From a virus (lineage: Duplodnaviria; Heunggongvirae; Uroviricota; Caudoviricetes), in the IMG/VR virus record IMGVR_UViG_3300045988_003641, positions 1 to 64,000 of that record: a stretch of DNA of 64,000 nucleotides. The stretch is one strand, 5' to 3'. Position 1 is the stretch's first letter. Each line of letters begins with the position of its first letter. The translations under genes and the position numbers were made by a program. The notes under the pieces were generated by a model, which worked only from the letters and a program-made list of their open reading frames with translations, did no database searches and was not told the DNA's origin. Below, piece by piece: positions 12,491 through 31,685 of the stretch.

Positions 12491-12776
12491 CGTTAAACTC
12501 TCTGACGAAGAAATAGTTGACTTTATTATTACCTACCATAAGGTCAAAGCAGGTGTTCTCAAAAGGCTTGTTGTAGGCATCATATGAAGTGTACGTATCA
12601 GCTACTTGCTTAGTAGTGAGCTTTTTACTTGATGGATTTAAGAGGCCACCATACAGTTTCTTGATAGCCTCTTCTACAACAGACCAGATGATTTCGTCAG
12701 TAATTTCTTCGTACAGGTCAAGTTCACGCTCTAGTGAGAAGTCACAAATTGGGAAAATAACCTGTACTTTACTCAT
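12483..12776 (-). CDS. hypothetical protein
   Basis: ORF 97 aa, 8-nt overlap with neighbour. Confidence 0.55.
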   Translation of the reverse strand: MSKVQVIFPICDFSLERELDLYEEITDEIIWSVVEEAIKKLYGGLLNPSSKKLTTKQVADTYTSYDAYNKPFENTCFDLMVGNNKVNYFFVREFNDE

Positions 12777-13171
12777 TAACGAATAACCTGTGAGACTTGA
12801 ATTGCTTCAGTTACTGATAAGTCACCCACTTTCTCTTCTTTGATAAAAGTGAAGGTGAGTTCAACAGGCTCTTGCTCTTCTTGCTCAACAGGAACACCAT
12901 TAAGCTCATCAAAGATTGATTGAGTTGTCCAGTCTTCTCCACCATCTGGGTAGTGGATGGCATAAAGAGGAAACTCTAAATTATACCAAGCAAAAACAGG
13001 GCAACCATCTACATCATCTCGGCATCTGTGGAGATATGTGTTTGTACCTTCAAAATGCAAATGTAGATTACCATTCTTCTCAAAGAGAATAGCATCTTGC
13101 AGGTCTAATTCCTCATTTTCGCTGTAACGGCTGACATCAACTTTAACGTGAATATGACTGTTATTATTCAT
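12776..13171 (-). CDS. hypothetical protein
   Basis: ORF 131 aa. Confidence 0.55.
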   Translation of the reverse strand: MNNNSHIHVKVDVSRYSENEELDLQDAILFEKNGNLHLHFEGTNTYLHRCRDDVDGCPVFAWYNLEFPLYAIHYPDGGEDWTTQSIFDELNGVPVEQEEQEPVELTFTFIKEEKVGDLSVTEAIQVSQVIR

Positions 13172-13562
13172 AAAAACCTCTCTCTGCTTGTTCGATTTTC
13201 GCTTTTAGAACTTCACACCGTTCAATGTGATATCTGGCTTCATTCTCATGTGTCGCCAAAGTTCTTTCAAGAATGGTTTTATAGTAACCTGCAAGCTGCT
13301 CTCTTGTCAATGGGTTCTCTGAAATAATATCGAGACCACTTTCACCCAGAGTATTAAACTGCCCATGTTCATTTACATGATAAGTCTCAAACTTGAATAA
13401 ACCGTTATTAGCAGCCTCAATAGGTGAGAGTTCAACCAACTCAACGGTGAACATTGTATGCACCCTATCACCAACTGTAACAATGTTACTTCCAATGATG
13501 CGTACAAGCGAACCATTACGAGTGTACTTAAAAGTCCCAAAGTCACTAGCCCAAAGCTTCAT
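13164..13562 (-). CDS. hypothetical protein
   Basis: ORF 132 aa with AAGGAG-type RBS. Confidence 0.55.
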   Translation of the reverse strand: MKLWASDFGTFKYTRNGSLVRIIGSNIVTVGDRVHTMFTVELVELSPIEAANNGLFKFETYHVNEHGQFNTLGESGLDIISENPLTREQLAGYYKTILERTLATHENEARYHIERCEVLKAKIEQAERGFYE

Positions 13563-13576
13563 AGTTTTCTCCTTAG

Positions 13577-13603
13577 AAAATAAAAAAGGCTCCCGAAGGA
13601 GCC
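13577..13603 (-). terminator. rho-independent terminator (minus strand) downstream of endolysin gene
   Basis: GGCTCC-cgaa-GGAGCC hairpin followed by T-tract on minus strand. Confidence 0.6.
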
Positions 13604-13613
13604 TATGAAGATA

Positions 13614-14078
13614 TTACTTTGGATATACGCTGTCAAGATAAATATCAGCTTCCATTCTACGTCTGTTTTTCAGACCGTTTGAAGTGACCTTCTTACCTTT
13701 GACTGTAACCTTGTTCCACCACTGCATAGCTTCTGCACAACCTACCTTATTACCAGCATTGTGGCGCTTGATAAATGTAGAATCCTGCATAGCTGTGATA
13801 CCGATGTTGTATGTTTCACTTACAAGTGCATCGAACTCATTCTGAGAAGTTGGAACCTTGATAGATTTGTTCACTGCTGCGACAAACTTTTCAACATCTG
13901 CAAGAAGATACTGTTCAGCCTGTTCAGCAGTAATTTTCATACCCATCTTAACAGGTTTTCCGTCAATACGGATTGTACCATACCCGATTGTTGGGATTCC
14001 GGCAGAGTCTTCGTAAGCCTCTAACTTCAGACCTTCAAAGAACTTAATAGCTTCTAAACCTTTTCTTGAGAGTTGCAT
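13614..14078 (-). CDS. endolysin, T4-lysozyme-like (GH24 muramidase)
   Basis: N-terminal FEGLKLEAYEDSAGIPTIGYG reproduces the Glu-8aa-Asp-5aa-Thr catalytic spacing of T4 lysozyme. Confidence 0.85.
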   Translation of the reverse strand: MQLSRKGLEAIKFFEGLKLEAYEDSAGIPTIGYGTIRIDGKPVKMGMKITAEQAEQYLLADVEKFVAAVNKSIKVPTSQNEFDALVSETYNIGITAMQDSTFIKRHNAGNKVGCAEAMQWWNKVTVKGKKVTSNGLKNRRRMEADIYLDSVYPK

Positions 14079-15211
14079 TATGCCTCCCCTGCTGGGTTAA
14101 CTGTAACTGTTGCCGCATTAGATGTTACAGAGCCACCTGCACCAGTAACTACACAAGTGTAGCTTCCTGCATCAGCAGCAGTTGCACCTTCTTTGGTGTA
14201 AGTTGCAGTAGTTGCGTCTAGGATGTTTTCCTCACCCTTCTTCCACTGATAACCTGTTGCACCAGTAGCCACAACATTCAGCGTTAAGGTCTCACCTTCG
14301 GTGATTTCTTGATTGGTTGGCTGCTGAGTGATAACTGGCAAAGCATTTACCGTGATTGTTGCAGGGTTAGAAGTAACAGAACCTCCAGCACCAGTTACAA
14401 CACAAGTATATGAGCCTGCATCTGCTGGCAGTGCACCAGACTTGCTATAGGTAGCGTTTGTAGCTGAAGGGATGTCAGAGCCATCTTTCTTCCACTGGTA
14501 ACCTGTTGCACCTGTTGCAGTCACTGATAGACTGATGTTTCCACCTTCATTAATGGTCTGGCTAGAAGGTTGCTGTGTAATCACAGGCAGTGCGTTAACA
14601 GTAACCGTTGCTGCATCTGAGGTGACACTTGTTCCACCCTCTCCAGATACAACACAAGTGTATGAACCAGCATCAGAAGGTGCTACGGATTGTTTTGTGT
14701 AAGTTGCAGAAGTGGCACTGGAGATGTCCTCACCATCCTTCTTCCACTGATATCCAGTGGCGTTAGTTGCTAGAACACTTAAAGTAAGTGTGCCACCCTC
14801 ATTGACTGTTTGGCCTGTTGGTTGCTGAGTAATTACTGGTGGCTTAATAGCATCCTTCAGCTTAGCATTCAACATTGAGAACGGCTTAACTCTTGCCAGC
14901 CATTCACAATACACTGTGTCAACGTCTTTACCATTGATGATTGCATACTGTAAATCCATGAAGAAATCAGCAGTCCTCATCTGTGCACCAACACTGTAAA
15001 GGAGTTCATCACTAAAAGGAACTTTGTAGTCTGGTTTGTAGTCAAACTTCGCAACCTCTGCAATATCAGCTTCAGGCCAATATGAGCTATAGGTGAGTGG
15101 TAAAATAGCTTCTTGATATGTTCTAAAATCATATCTCTTACCAGCCTTTACATTTGCAACGAAGCCCTTTACAAATTCTTTGAAGTCTGGGTAAGTCTTT
15201 GCTTTAATCAT
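14078..15211 (-). CDS. protein with N-terminal domain plus three tandem Ig-like repeats
   Basis: Three about 90-aa repeats PVITQQP...ATGATGYQWKKDG...AGSYTCVV; N-domain paralogous to 15208-15579. Confidence 0.7.
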   Translation of the reverse strand: MIKAKTYPDFKEFVKGFVANVKAGKRYDFRTYQEAILPLTYSSYWPEADIAEVAKFDYKPDYKVPFSDELLYSVGAQMRTADFFMDLQYAIINGKDVDTVYCEWLARVKPFSMLNAKLKDAIKPPVITQQPTGQTVNEGGTLTLSVLATNATGYQWKKDGEDISSATSATYTKQSVAPSDAGSYTCVVSGEGGTSVTSDAATVTVNALPVITQQPSSQTINEGGNISLSVTATGATGYQWKKDGSDIPSATNATYSKSGALPADAGSYTCVVTGAGGSVTSNPATITVNALPVITQQPTNQEITEGETLTLNVVATGATGYQWKKGEENILDATTATYTKEGATAADAGSYTCVVTGAGGSVTSNAATVTVNPAGEA

Positions 15212-15579
15212 TTCTTTTTAGCCTCTAAACGTGCGTTTAATCTAAAATAGCCTTTGTGTTGTGGAGACACATCACCAACAACGATACCTTCAACCTTATA
15301 ACCTTTACCGATTACATACTGGATATCCATAAGAAATGTACCAAGTCCGACAATGTGGAACATTGGGTACAATAACTTATCTGAATCTGGGAGATTAATA
15401 TCTGGGATGTAGGTAGGTTGTTTACTAGTGGGTGTGATATCTTCTTCAGGCCATTTGCTAAGTCTCCATGTTAAAGGTGATGCAATAACATCATTAAGAT
15501 TATATCTCTCACCTTTCTCCACAGAATTAATATAGGATTGTAGGAAGCAATAAAAGTCTTTTGCACTCTTAGCCTTCAT
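15208..15579 (-). CDS. hypothetical protein, paralog of the N-terminal domain of the Ig-repeat protein
   Basis: Shares FMDLQY core and flanks with N-terminus of 14078-15211. Confidence 0.6.
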   Translation of the reverse strand: MKAKSAKDFYCFLQSYINSVEKGERYNLNDVIASPLTWRLSKWPEEDITPTSKQPTYIPDINLPDSDKLLYPMFHIVGLGTFLMDIQYVIGKGYKVEGIVVGDVSPQHKGYFRLNARLEAKKK

Positions 15580-15626
15580 TAAATATCCTTATAAATAGAT
15601 AAAGGGGCATTAGCCCCTGTTTATAC

Positions 15627-16217
15627 TTAAGCTTTGGTCTTAAGTAGGTTTTTAAGCTTTTTGAGATTCATGCTCTCGTCAAACTTAAAACCAAATCCAT
15701 TGACATAATCAATGAACTCGGATTTCTTGCTAAGTGATAATGCGTAACTCATATCAAAGTTATTACTTGTTTCTGCGTCTGGACTAGAGTTCACATCAAA
15801 TGAAATCTCTGTAGGCTCTTGCTTGCTACTTCTCATATTGTCAATCAATAGACAGGTATAGTTCGCTGGATAGAAGTTAACACTCCCATCAACATACCCA
15901 TACTTATTATTATGAATAAGGTTTGAAAATACCTTAAGAAATGTTTCTGAGTCGTGGCATACAAGTTTGAATTGACTGCATTCCCCAAGAGCCACTAAAG
16001 AGTAAGGGCTTTCACTATCAATGTCATAGTTTGGATTTGATGTTGTAACCGTCACACGCATCAAGTTATTAGCGATAGTCTTCTGCTTGAAAGAATTTGG
16101 GACATAGTGAAGACCTCTATCACACTGATTAACTAACTCTTTAAGTAGGTCGTTTGCATATGGTGAATTAATTGATACAGAGCCATCACTATTATAATTA
16201 AAACTTACTGTTAACAT
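15627..16217 (-). CDS. hypothetical protein
   Basis: ORF 196 aa. Confidence 0.55.
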   Translation of the reverse strand: MLTVSFNYNSDGSVSINSPYANDLLKELVNQCDRGLHYVPNSFKQKTIANNLMRVTVTTSNPNYDIDSESPYSLVALGECSQFKLVCHDSETFLKVFSNLIHNNKYGYVDGSVNFYPANYTCLLIDNMRSSKQEPTEISFDVNSSPDAETSNNFDMSYALSLSKKSEFIDYVNGFGFKFDESMNLKKLKNLLKTKA

Positions 16218-24265: not shown

Positions 24266-24357
24266 GAAGATTAACCCTAAAAGGTAAGGGAGCAGTTTGC
24301 TAAACTGCCAGTAGCTGAGAAATCGGTGTACCAGTTCAAGTCTGGTATCTTCCTCCA
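24266..24357 (+). tRNA. tRNA-Ser (anticodon GCU), class II
   Basis: 92 nt; acceptor GGAAGAT/ATCTTCC, stem GCAGT/ACTGC, loop TTGCTAA. Confidence 0.6.
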
Positions 24358-24361
24358 ATTT

Positions 24362-24436
24362 GAATCCGTGACAGAAATGGCTATGTGCCTGTCTGCAAAA
24401 CAGGTTTATAAGGGTTCGAGTCCCTTCGGATTCTCC
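24362..24436 (+). tRNA. tRNA-Cys (anticodon GCA)
   Basis: Acceptor GAATCCG/CGGATTC, stem CCTGT/ACAGG, loop CTGCAAA. Confidence 0.6.
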
Positions 24437-24473
24437 AAGTTATTTTACTCTCTCTCAATTAAAATAATAATAA

Positions 24474-30578: not shown

Positions 30579-31685
30579 ATGTTGACTAATTCTGAAAAAA
30601 GCAGATTTTTCCTTGCTGACCTGACTGGTGAAGTCCAGTCTATCCCAAATACTTATGGGTATATTTCCAACTTAGGTCTGTTCCGTTCAGCACCAATCAC
30701 CCAAACTACTTTCCTTATGGACTTGACTGATTGGGATGTTAGCTTGCTTGATGCGGTAGACCGTGATAGCCGTAAAGCAGAGACTAGCGCACCTGAGCGT
30801 GTTCGTCAAATCAGCTTCCCAATGATGTACTTCAAAGAAGTTGAAAGCATCACTCCTGATGAAATTCAGGGTGTACGTCAGCCAGGCACTGCAAACGAAC
30901 TGACTACTGAAGCTGTAGTACGTGCTAAGAAGCTGATGAAGATTCGTACCAAGTTCGATATTACTCGTGAGTTCCTGTTTATGCAAGCTCTGAAGGGTAA
31001 AGTTGTTGATGCTCGTGGTACGCTGTATGCTGACCTGTACAAGCAGTTCAACGTTGAGAAGAAGACTGTTCACTTCGACCTTGACAACCCTAATGCTGAC
31101 ATCGACGCTTCTATTGAAGAACTGCGTATGCACATGGAAGACGAAGCGAAGACTGGCACTGTAATCAACGGTGAAGAAATTCACGTAGTTGTTGACCGTG
31201 TGTTCTTCAGCAAACTGACTAAACACCCTAAGATTCGTGACGCTTATCTTGCACAGCAGACTCCGCTGGCTTGGCAACAGATTACTGGTTCTCTGAGAAC
31301 TGGTGGTACTGACGGCGTTCAGGCTCATATGAACACTTTCTACTACGGTGGTGTTAAGTTTGTCCAGTACAACGGTAAGTTCAAAGACAAGCGTGGCAAG
31401 GTTCACACTCTGGTGAGCATTGATAGCGTAGCAGACACTGTTGGTGTTGGTCATGCTTTCCCTAACGTTTCTATGCTGGGTGAAGCAAACAACATCTTCG
31501 AAGTGGCTTATGGCCCATGTCCTAAGATGGGTTATGCAAATACACTTGGTCAGGAACTGTACGTATTCGAATACGAAAAAGACCGTGACGAAGGTATTGA
31601 CTTTGAAGCTCACTCTTACATGCTGCCATACTGTACTCGTCCTCAGTTGCTGGTAGATGTTCGCGCTGACGCCAAAGGTGGCTGA
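30579..31685 (+). CDS. major capsid protein
   Basis: 368 aa after protease/scaffold; call by synteny and size. Confidence 0.7.
   Translation: MLTNSEKSRFFLADLTGEVQSIPNTYGYISNLGLFRSAPITQTTFLMDLTDWDVSLLDAVDRDSRKAETSAPERVRQISFPMMYFKEVESITPDEIQGVRQPGTANELTTEAVVRAKKLMKIRTKFDITREFLFMQALKGKVVDARGTLYADLYKQFNVEKKTVHFDLDNPNADIDASIEELRMHMEDEAKTGTVINGEEIHVVVDRVFFSKLTKHPKIRDAYLAQQTPLAWQQITGSLRTGGTDGVQAHMNTFYYGGVKFVQYNGKFKDKRGKVHTLVSIDSVADTVGVGHAFPNVSMLGEANNIFEVAYGPCPKMGYANTLGQELYVFEYEKDRDEGIDFEAHSYMLPYCTRPQLLVDVRADAKGG

Follow-up and report, generated by a model that had tools for sequence, protein, structure and literature searches.

Hex-Dec of phage Bas63 and gp20 of phage Sf14 are capsid decoration proteins of the Ounavirinae. 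The cryo-EM papers on the two phages (Sf14: PMC11821841) describe an architecture of capsid-binding domain (CapBD) plus Ig-like domains and binding at the centres of the edge hexamers, with Arg79 and Arg107 as the salt-bridge anchors to Asp221 of the capsid protein (PMC11821841). Both papers place the protein on edge hexamers only, and the Bas63 paper reports no density on the other hexamers. By mass spectrometry (MS), Sf14 gp20 has been detected (PMC11821841), and Felix O1 gp36 has been identified in virions at a coverage of 44%. It is for these orthologues that a monomer on the 60 edge hexamers of a T=9 capsid has been established, by cryo-EM (Bas63 and Sf14) and MS (Felix O1 and Sf14). The 60 edge hexamers are occupied by Hex-Dec and the 20 three-fold hexamers are bare. 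In both cryo-EM papers more than 10 kb lie between the Hex-Dec gene and the structural module (Bas63; Sf14, PMC11821841). Publications of February 2025 (Sf14) and November 2025 (Bas63) already cover the protein with its fold and capsid-binding site, the variation in its number of Ig units, and the unusual place of its gene in the genome.

We analysed a 64,000-nucleotide stretch of viral DNA (the window), which belongs to a Felixounavirus, a Felix O1-like myophage, and is 97.8% identical in nucleotide sequence to vB_EcoM_DE7. A 377-aa open reading frame (14078-15211, minus strand) and a 123-aa one (15208-15579, minus strand) lie exactly where a preliminary description of this DNA had placed them. 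The longer encodes a Hex-Dec, a Hoc-like decoration protein of hexamer centres, and the shorter a free-standing, Ig-less paralogue of its CapBD (phrog_4463). An endolysin of the T4 lysozyme type (13614-14078, minus strand; PF00959, E 1e-40; phrog_7 endolysin) completes a block that reads paralogue, Hex-Dec, endolysin; the structural module is on the other strand. The TGA stop of the paralogue overlaps the ATG of Hex-Dec, and the endolysin ATG, with GGAGG upstream of it, overlaps the Hex-Dec TAA by one base. A terminator scan delimits the block by two terminator-like hairpins, one upstream of the paralogue (15603-15618, minus strand) and one just past the endolysin stop (13587-13604, minus strand). 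At the equivalent sites vB_EcoM_AYO145A carries annotations of a rho-independent terminator and a terminator, respectively. Sigma-70-like promoters inside the block show no excess over chance (6 found, 8.8 expected).

The same gene order is found in Sf14, Moogle, SUSP2, HY02, Mushroom, Felix O1 and Bas63 as well as in a divergent 87-kb metagenomic contig. Transcription of Felix O1 ORF36 and ORF37 peaks at 60 min together with the structural genes, and that of ORF35, the lysin, at 25 min. The three-gene block is conserved and late-expressed. As the preliminary description had remarked, the pair sits beside the lysozyme, which is directly downstream, and outside the structural module: about 15 kb separate the Hex-Dec gene, flanked by the CapBD paralogue and the endolysin, from the capsid gene. 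The puzzle that it implied has already been solved: the protein decorates capsid hexamers, and its location, though odd, is conserved and published.

Using phmmer against the PDB, we matched the 377-aa protein to Bas63 Hex-Dec (9ncf_S, E 5.5e-292) and to Sf14 gp20 (9c2d_S, E 3.6e-173); it also matches phrog_3995 (E 4e-210). Its residues 1-122, the CapBD (14846-15211, minus strand), are near-identical to the modelled parts of 9ncf_S and 9c2d_S. Both Arg79 and Arg107 are present, and both are invariant across the Hex-Dec clade. The binding partner of the CapBD, the major capsid protein, is encoded in the same window (30579-31685, plus strand) and matches 9ncf_A (E 2e-246) and 9c2d_A (E 3e-232) in phmmer. 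The alignment is gap-free before residue 221 and reads KIRD221A, with Asp221 conserved under the same numbering. The anchors, the Ig string, the CapBD homology and the gene position together place the protein in the Hex-Dec/Sf14 gp20 kind, and no finding contradicts this identification. The 377-aa protein is the Ounavirinae Hex-Dec orthologue, the counterpart of Bas63 Hex-Dec, Sf14 gp20 and Felix O1 gp36. The expectation that an Ig-domain protein of this type decorates virions is borne out by these orthologues, which MS detects in virions and cryo-EM places on the capsid.

The remainder of the protein consists of Ig-like units. Pfam recognises three Ig stretches (Ig_3, 3e-34; Ig_2, 8e-29; I-set, 6e-25), and the first residues of the repeats are 125, 209 and 292. 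All on the minus strand, domain 1 covers residues 125-208 (14588-14839; Ig_3/I-set), domain 2 residues 209-291 (14339-14587; Ig_2, best stretch 209-288) and domain 3, the terminal unit, residues 292-377 (14081-14338; I-set, best stretch 292-366). The AF2 model of Hex-Dec, with a pLDDT of 90.4 overall and 94-97 over the repeats (91-97 over Ig1), folds into three beta-sandwich domains; in the PDB, its closest structural matches by Foldseek are tandem I-set proteins such as LRIG1, Robo1/2 and titin. The units are acidic (pI 4.1-4.7). The preliminary description had read these repeats as Ig-like and proposed an HMM search as a check; the Pfam stretches, the predicted beta-sandwiches and the I-set matches agree with it. 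Both points on which it had staked this reading, an Ig fold and presence in virions, came out in its favour, since the fold is predicted and the orthologous protein is found in virions.

Its account of the history of the repeats has to be revised. Described as near-identical, the repeats share 67-73% amino acid and 63-67% nucleotide identity in pairs. The duplication was also said to be visible at the nucleotide level. Tandem Repeats Finder reported no repeat in positions 13500-16000, and recurrence is limited to a 41-nt stretch at 78-80% identity with a spacing of 249/252 nt. Nor is the duplication recent. Each unit has a positional counterpart in other phages that is 92-99% identical: Ig1 is 93-98% identical to Ig1 of mio, AYO145A, Felix O1 and Bas63, Ig2 is 92-98% identical to Ig2 of AYO145A, Bas63 and HY02, and the terminal Ig3 is 99% identical to Ig4 of Bas63. 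The divergence of the units accordingly predates that of these phages. Relatives have between 1 and 4 Ig units, whole units having been gained or lost in register.

We give almost no credence to two other identities for the 377-aa protein: a tail protein, or an accessory to lysis whose Ig domains would direct the neighbouring endolysin to the cell wall. The label 'tail protein' is widespread, in most GenBank records and in PHROG 3995, and the gene adjoins the endolysin. Against this, cryo-EM puts the orthologues on capsid hexamers, the Bas63 paper calls 'tail protein' a mis-annotation, the Felix O1 lysin peaks at a different time from ORF36 and ORF37, and no holin, spanin or other recognisable lysis gene is nearby. 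For the orthologues, PDB 9NCF and 9C2D refute the tail or lysis reading. A lysis cassette was considered for the locus itself and set aside: the neighbours have no Pfam matches, there is no adjacent holin, and the lysin is expressed at a different time. As a practical point, the common 'tail protein' label on the Hex-Dec gene is wrong.

By extension from the orthologues, the T=9 capsid would carry 60 Hex-Dec monomers, one in the middle of every pentamer-proximal (edge) hexamer. The N-terminal 122-residue CapBD would hold each in place by the salt bridges that Arg79 and Arg107 form with Asp221 of the capsid protein, and the three acidic I-set Ig-like domains would point outward as a flexible fibre. 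The analogy with T4 Hoc, together with one conditional-fitness result, suggests that this fibre probably lets particles adhere weakly to surfaces, mucus or cells, or controls their aggregation. The function of Hex-Dec is non-essential; according to the PhageMaP preprint, Bas63 gp124 matters on host S17-1 only.

The 123-aa protein upstream has orthologues in Felix O1 (ORF37), Sf14 (gp21) and Bas63 (bas63_0125). The preliminary description had taken it for a paralogue of the Hex-Dec N-domain and suggested an alignment of the two. Aligned by BLASTP, they are indeed paralogous over their full length (36% identity over 121 aa, E 2e-17), and PHROG cross-matches between paralogue and CapBD are reciprocal (1e-15 to 3e-15). 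In phmmer the paralogue finds 9ncf_S at 7e-12 (9ncf_S and 9c2d_S both at about 1e-11). An AF2 model of the paralogue, built on a shallow 14-sequence alignment with a pLDDT of 59 and used for its top fold match only and not for surface analysis, has 9ncf_S and 9c2d_S as its only significant Foldseek matches in the PDB (TM 0.65; all others E >0.3). The FMDLQY core that the two were said to share is present in the long protein (FFMDLQY) and altered in the short one (FLMDIQY). The capsid anchors are not conserved: the Arg79 column of the paralogue is an invariant Gly, and the Arg107 column is Q, H, K or R. The paralogue is basic (pI 8.9, charge +2.7), and its most conserved segments, residues 71-90 and 111-120, have a sequence of their own.

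The paralogue and the Hex-Dec CapBD fall into two distinct clades, and all four lineages are represented in each. Selection is purifying, with a dN/dS of 0.15 for the paralogue (0.07-0.22 across all 21 pairs compared, at a synonymous divergence close to 1) compared to 0.034 for the CapBD; identity to the divergent metagenomic lineage is 46% for the paralogue and 57% for the CapBD. A profile search of 1.84 billion representatives returned 13 family members. In the distant ones the CapBD is joined to Big_2 or I-set domains or has a Lys-rich tail; on the available DNA, which includes some short contigs, each has one CapBD-family gene, and they offer no hint of what the paralogue does. Judged by its sequence, the paralogue is a true, ancient duplicate of the CapBD, never with Ig domains. 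It is made together with Hex-Dec.

Around 20 of 253 related phage records (~8%) retain a remnant of the paralogue only, with the ATG lost, an internal deletion of ~220 bp and frameshifts. The presence of this pseudogene in a lineage of ~20 phages indicates that the function of the paralogue is dispensable. The sampled records without the paralogue break at one point (query 1204-1208), and mio and fBSPA4 have identical deletion boundaries, which suggests one loss event rather than recurrent decay.

The virion data speak against the paralogue, though indirectly, and the literature is silent on it. The Felix O1 virion list, restricted to proteins with at least 25% coverage, does not contain it although proteins of 9.7-13.7 kDa appear there, and the new proteins of VpaE1 virions do not include it either. 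The gene is present in both phages whose capsids have been solved, and their symmetrised cryo-EM maps contain no unassigned capsid density (Bas63; Sf14, PMC11821841). The words 'paralog' and 'duplication' are absent from the Bas63 paper, phage gp21 is never mentioned in the Sf14 paper (PMC11821841) or its supplement, and the discussion in the PhageMaP preprint is limited to gp124. Our search found no mention of the paralogue and no experimental data on it; the UAB_Phi87 paper contains no proteomics and the wV8 paper no relevant list, and a search for paralogues of the capsid-binding domains of decoration proteins returned nothing relevant. Neither structural paper mentions that these phages carry a conserved, late, translationally coupled copy of the CapBD without Ig domains and without Arg79.

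For the locus as a whole, the explanation that we favour combines decoration of edge hexamers by Hex-Dec, which we hold with high confidence, with a tentative reading of the paralogue as acting in the cell on the capsid/Hex-Dec system. Inside the infected cell it may, for instance, bind capsid-protein hexamers or Hex-Dec transiently while the head matures; it has replaced the Arg79 anchor, and would be dispensable and not a stable virion component. In a more specific form, the paralogue would be a dedicated, hitherto overlooked partner in a Hoc-like decoration system, either helping to set which hexamers take up Hex-Dec, by transient binding to hexamers or Hex-Dec as the head matures, or weakly occupying the three-fold hexamers. 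We put this forward tentatively, as possible but doubtful. If true, it would make Hex-Dec the first decoration protein known with a paralogous accessory factor. A stronger claim would have the paralogue as a second, 'bald' decoration protein that caps the 20 three-fold hexamers or competes with Hex-Dec to tune Ig density, and that was missed because a monomer on a three-fold axis, present in few copies, is smeared by icosahedral averaging. The paralogue shares the CapBD fold, its late expression coincides with that of Hex-Dec and the structural genes, its translation is coupled to that of Hex-Dec, and its basic charge suits the acidic Asp221 ring. Moreover, the three-fold hexamers of Sf14 differ in the orientation of Asp221 towards Arg79 and Arg107 (PMC11821841), the very positions changed in the paralogue. 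Yet Sf14 and Bas63 both encode it and decoration was reported on edge hexamers only, with the others devoid of density in Bas63; the Felix O1 list lacks it although proteins as small were detected, and so do the new VpaE1 proteins. We therefore consider a second cap quite improbable.

Two further readings detach the paralogue from the capsid. Recruitment to an unrelated job, such as host takeover, anti-defence or lysis timing, with the CapBD fold alone kept, would fit the replacement of both anchors, the faster evolution compared to the CapBD and the lack of detection in virions, and has a precedent in the decoration protein Psu of P4, which inhibits an intracellular target, Rho, according to PMC11718236. 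However, every lineage examined has the paralogue directly before Hex-Dec, its stop overlapping the Hex-Dec start, and the late timing matches that of Hex-Dec, which argues for a functional link between the two; no Pfam or PHROG match suggests another activity, and we regard this reading as unlikely. That the gene is a functionless leftover drifting to loss appears highly improbable. The remnants and the tiny size of the family could be taken that way, but purifying selection is seen in every pairwise comparison, the frame is intact in four lineages that split after the duplication, the paralogue has strongly conserved segments of its own, and the remnants point to one loss. The paralogue is a cheap and well-defined target for asking why Hex-Dec occupies edge hexamers only, for which natural knockouts (mio, fBSPA4), structural models and a barcoded Bas63 knockout library exist.

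Among better known decoration proteins, T4 Hoc is likewise a non-essential monomer at hexamer centres with a small capsid-binding domain, a string of Ig domains and an acidic fibre. Its capsid-binding domain is C-terminal, however, the reverse of the order in the window protein; the Bas63 paper finds the capsid-binding domains of Hoc and Hex-Dec topologically distinct with minimal shared sequence, and the Hoc-like PHROGs 2973 and 4069 match the window protein in its Ig part only (residues 120-290). With reversed order, Ig-only similarity and distinct topology, the protein falls outside the T4 Hoc family and works like Hoc. T5 pb10 also binds hexamer centres and has the same order, an N-terminal capsid binder and then a C-terminal Ig-like domain (5lxk_A, E 3.5e-12; 8zvi_a, E 1.2e-11), but a single Ig domain compared to three. 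It was rejected as a family as well: the match is confined to Ig (query 215-292 to residues 80-158 of the 164 in the chain) and the capsid-binding domains have no detectable similarity.

The closest relative is Hex-Dec of Bas63 (Escherichia phage JohannRWettstein; bas63_0124, PDB 9NCF chain S), whose CapBD, Ig1 and Ig2 are about 92-95% identical and whose terminal Ig is 99% identical to those of the window protein. Its neighbours are alike (the paralogue bas63_0125 upstream, the endolysin bas63_0123 downstream), as is the capsid protein with Asp221. Bas63 Hex-Dec has four Ig units, and the three of the window protein lack exactly its third. In Sf14, a Shigella phage of another genus (Mooglevirus), the orthologue gp20 (PDB 9C2D/9C3A chain S) conserves Arg79 and Arg107, stands between the paralogue gp21 and the endolysin gp19, and has three Ig units that are about 61-69% identical to ours without one-to-one pairing. 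The Felix O1 locus has the same layout, with ORF35 as lysin, ORF36 as Hex-Dec (gp36, 'tail protein') and ORF37 as paralogue; gp36 has two Ig units in 294 aa, compared to three here. The main feature of this locus is ordinary and belongs to an already-solved system, and the undescribed part is the small upstream gene only.

The phage belongs to the genus Felixounavirus (Felix O1-like myophages). A 2.8-kb region of the window matches 249 phage records and shares 97.8% identity with Escherichia phage vB_EcoM_DE7. A 377-aa ORF (14078-15211, minus strand) and a 123-aa ORF (15208-15579, minus strand) exist exactly where the preliminary description placed them. Directly 3′ of the longer ORF lies that of a 154-aa endolysin, a T4-type lysozyme (13614-14078, minus strand; PF00959, E 1e-40; PHROG 7, endolysin). 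The three reading frames overlap at both junctions: the 123-aa stop codon runs into the 377-aa start (…AAATGATT…), and the 377-aa stop shares one base with the 154-aa start (…GCATAATG…). Terminator-like hairpins (13587-13604 and 15603-15618) flank this three-gene block, and terminators are annotated at both sites in the close relative vB_EcoM_AYO145A. The capsid gene is 15.4 kb from the 377-aa gene on the opposite strand, with a cluster of 26 tRNA genes between them.

A sequence search of the 377-aa protein against all PDB chains gave two overwhelming matches, 9ncf_S (phage Bas63 'immunoglobulin-like domain protein', 460 aa; E 5.5e-292) and 9c2d_S/9c3a (phage Sf14 'putative tail protein', 372 aa; E 3.6e-173). 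These are the decoration proteins of two recent cryo-EM papers, Hex-Dec and gp20, respectively. The main feature of the window is already known, as a solved and published decoration protein of hexamer centres (Hex-Dec hereafter). According to the Bas63 cryo-EM paper, Hex-Dec of felixounaviruses carries 1 to 4 Ig units, its Bas63 gene lies >10 kb outside the structural module, and the gene is mislabelled 'tail protein' in most genomes. The first 118 residues of Sf14 gp20 form the capsid-binding domain (CapBD), whose anchors Arg79 and Arg107 engage Asp221 on three subunits of the capsid protein; gp20 is restricted to pentamer-proximal hexamers and was detected in Sf14 particles by mass spectrometry (PMC11821841). 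The window Hex-Dec carries both Arg79 and Arg107, and residue 221 of the major capsid protein (30579-31685, plus strand; 9ncf_A, E 2e-246, also matching 9c2d_A) is Asp, in alignments to 9ncf_A and 9c2d_A that are gap-free before this position. Compared with its Bas63 orthologue, bas63_0124, the window protein is in effect the same protein minus the third Bas63 Ig unit. In the PhageMaP screen bas63_0124 is 'gp124', which is generally dispensable and scored more important on E. coli S17-1. In Felix O1 the orthologue is gp36, encoded beside the gp35 lysin and detected in virions (44% coverage) already in 2010. The preliminary description had noted that Ig-like domains in phages usually decorate virions. 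Overall, its observations hold in part, and so does its interpretation.

Its three Ig-like repeats are real. Pfam finds three stretches each of Ig_3 (3e-34), Ig_2 (8e-29) and I-set (6e-25), and the motif PVITQQP opens each unit, at residues 125, 209 and 292. Modelled in full by AF2 (mean pLDDT 90.4; repeats 94-97, all-beta), the protein finds its closest PDB folds in LRIG1, Robo1/2 and titin I67-I69, all with tandem I-set domains (E 1e-18 to 1e-20). The Ig fold is therefore predicted, and its absence, which had been proposed as a refutation, is not borne out. The repeats were, however, also called near-identical, and the units share only 67-73% identity in protein and 63-67% in DNA. Nor did the recent duplication said to be visible at nucleotide level hold up: Tandem Repeats Finder reported no repeat, and recurring DNA is limited to a 41-nt stretch (78-80% identity, 249/252-nt spacing). 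Every unit is far closer to its positional counterpart in other phages than to its sister units, with identities of 93-98% for Ig1 (mio, AYO145A, Felix O1 and Bas63), 92-98% for Ig2 (AYO145A, Bas63 and HY02) and 99% for Ig3 against Bas63 Ig4. The Ig units therefore diverged before these phages separated. All three window units are acidic (pI 4.1-4.7). When 60 of the 222 matching records were sampled at even spacing, the span of the gene pair fell into four classes, corresponding to one Ig unit in 7 records, two in 18, three in 20 and four in 3. One Hex-Dec variant (cluster representative P0053, 209 aa) has a frameshift inside Ig1, so that an intact CapBD is followed by an out-of-frame tail; some 'short' database Hex-Dec proteins may be truncated rather than true one-Ig forms.

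The adjacency to the endolysin is an old, conserved synteny. The order paralogue-Hex-Dec-lysozyme is found in Felixounavirus (Felix O1, AYO145A, HY02, Mushroom and Bas63), Mooglevirus (Sf14 and Moogle) and Suspvirus (SUSP2), and extends to a divergent metagenomic contig of 87 kb. In a relative still further removed, the lysozyme is immediately preceded by a single CapBD-family gene that lacks Ig domains. The arrangement is not a lysis cassette: by RT-PCR in Felix O1, the lysin ORF35 belongs to the 25-min class, and ORF36 and ORF37 are late (60 min), like structural genes; no lysis function is recognisable in the neighbouring genes; and the Felix O1 paper reports no adjacent holin.

Several annotations near this locus deserve comment. 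The phage mio homologue of a 131-aa ORF (12776-13171, minus strand) is annotated 'D-alanyl-D-alanine carboxypeptidase', a label that looks unsupported; Pfam gives the ORF no match at E <= 0.01. A 471-aa DUF2828 + DUF7788/vWA protein (17290-18705, plus strand), labelled 'RNA-binding protein' in relatives, is encoded immediately upstream of the tRNA cluster (18871-24437, plus strand; 26 genes, of which Rfam gives 25, three at only 31-33 bits). Even in the distant metagenomic relative L015, its gene and a DUF5681 gene keep their linkage to the CapBD/lysozyme block. Finally, the 147-kb record GU169904.1, 'Staphylococcus phage SA1', contains a Felix O1-type locus at 142306-143558 (86-87% identity) and is probably chimeric or contaminated.

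The 123-aa protein is, as the preliminary description held, a paralogue of the Hex-Dec N-domain (36% identity over 121 residues by BLASTP, E 2e-17), with reciprocal PHROG cross-matches (phrog_4463 on the long protein, 9e-16; phrog_3995 on the short one, 3e-15). The 'shared FMDLQY core' reads FFMDLQY in the 377-aa and FLMDIQY in the 123-aa protein. The paralogue matches 9ncf_S and 9c2d_S directly by sequence (E about 1e-11), and these are also the only significant PDB folds for its low-confidence AF2 model (pLDDT 59; TM 0.63-0.65, E 1e-4), all remaining matches having E above 0.3. In a CapBD-domain tree, paralogues and Hex-Dec CapBDs form two separate clades, both including Felixounavirus, Mooglevirus, Suspvirus and the divergent metagenomic lineage; judged from this topology, the duplication is ancient. 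Across 21 genome pairs the paralogue has a dN/dS of 0.07-0.22 (pooled 0.15), compared to 0.034 for CapBD, 0.10 for Ig1 and 0.09 for the lysin, which indicates that it is functional where present. Between genera (loci L001 and L004-L008), synonymous divergence is saturated in the Hex-Dec CapBD (14846-15211; pS 0.72-0.83) and only 0.5-0.6 in the flanking paralogue (15208-15579) and lysin (13614-14078), which hints at a mosaic or recombinant history of the Hex-Dec gene. The family is tiny, with 13 matches to a profile among 1.84 billion representative proteins; its distant members are single-copy genes in which Big_2 domains, I-set domains or a Lys-rich tail are joined to the CapBD. In three metagenomic phages the C-terminal modules differ, namely a Lys-rich tail without an Ig domain (L015, 6001-6462), a Big_2 domain (L012, 869-1489) and one I-set domain (L013, 2179-2868). 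Various types of display domain have evidently been attached to the capsid-binding module.

The paralogue is the only undescribed element of the locus. Both structurally studied phages encode it (Sf14 FDI99_gp021 and bas63_0125), and the literature we found leaves it unmentioned: the Bas63 paper contains neither 'paralog' nor 'duplication', the Sf14 paper and supplement are silent on phage gp21, and the discussion in the PhageMaP preprint is confined to gp124. In paralogues, the Arg79 column is an invariant Gly inside a conserved HIVGLG motif and the Arg107 column is Q, H, K or R. Conservation is highest at residues 71-90, corresponding to the Arg79-bearing segment of Hex-Dec, and at 111-120, just past the Arg107 position. 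The paralogue is basic (pI 8.9 versus 6.3 for CapBD). Its altered binding surface looks like changed specificity rather than decay. Published data, as far as they reach, show no stable place for it in the virion: the list of Felix O1 virion proteins lacks it, though proteins of 9.7-13.7 kDa were detected; VpaE1 virions, where it is ORF40c, yielded only gp54, gp58 and gp68 beyond the Felix O1 set; and neither capsid map (Bas63, Sf14) has unassigned density on other hexamers. It is also dispensable. By tblastn, 20 of 253 related records give only the cross-match to the Hex-Dec CapBD, and mio (L002, 2306-2498) and fBSPA4 (L003, 2305-2498) retain a remnant with a lost ATG, a ~220 bp internal deletion and frameshifts. 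The break point is common to the sampled paralogue-less records (REP6, REP8, REP11, Tf and SP116 as in mio and fBSPA4), suggesting that the gene was lost once. Such phages amount to natural knockouts.

That the paralogue acts in the same capsid-decoration system is suggested by its late co-expression with Hex-Dec, their conserved translational coupling and their common fold. Its absence from virions and its altered anchor speak against its being a second, stable decoration protein. We therefore tentatively favour a dispensable role inside the cell, exerted transiently on Hex-Dec or on hexamers of the capsid protein. That it is instead a moonlighting protein unrelated to the capsid ranks second and seems doubtful. 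A 'bald cap' on the three-fold hexamers is improbable. Pure decay is the least credible reading of all, against which stand the low dN/dS and the conserved segments of its own. The choice between a transient role and its rivals can be addressed with the existing natural knockouts, structures and barcoded mutant library.

For Hex-Dec itself, CapBD would plug the acidic centre of edge hexamers via its two arginines, as shown for the orthologues and with the residues conserved in the window, and the three acidic Ig units would extend as a flexible fibre. Both cryo-EM papers draw on the analogy of T4 Hoc to propose adhesion or aggregation sensing, a role that the window protein may share. Hex-Dec works like Hoc and yet lies outside the Hoc family: its domain order is reversed, the capsid-binding domains are topologically distinct, and sequence similarity to Hoc-like PHROGs, as to T5 pb10 (5lxk_A, 8zvi_a), is limited to the Ig part.
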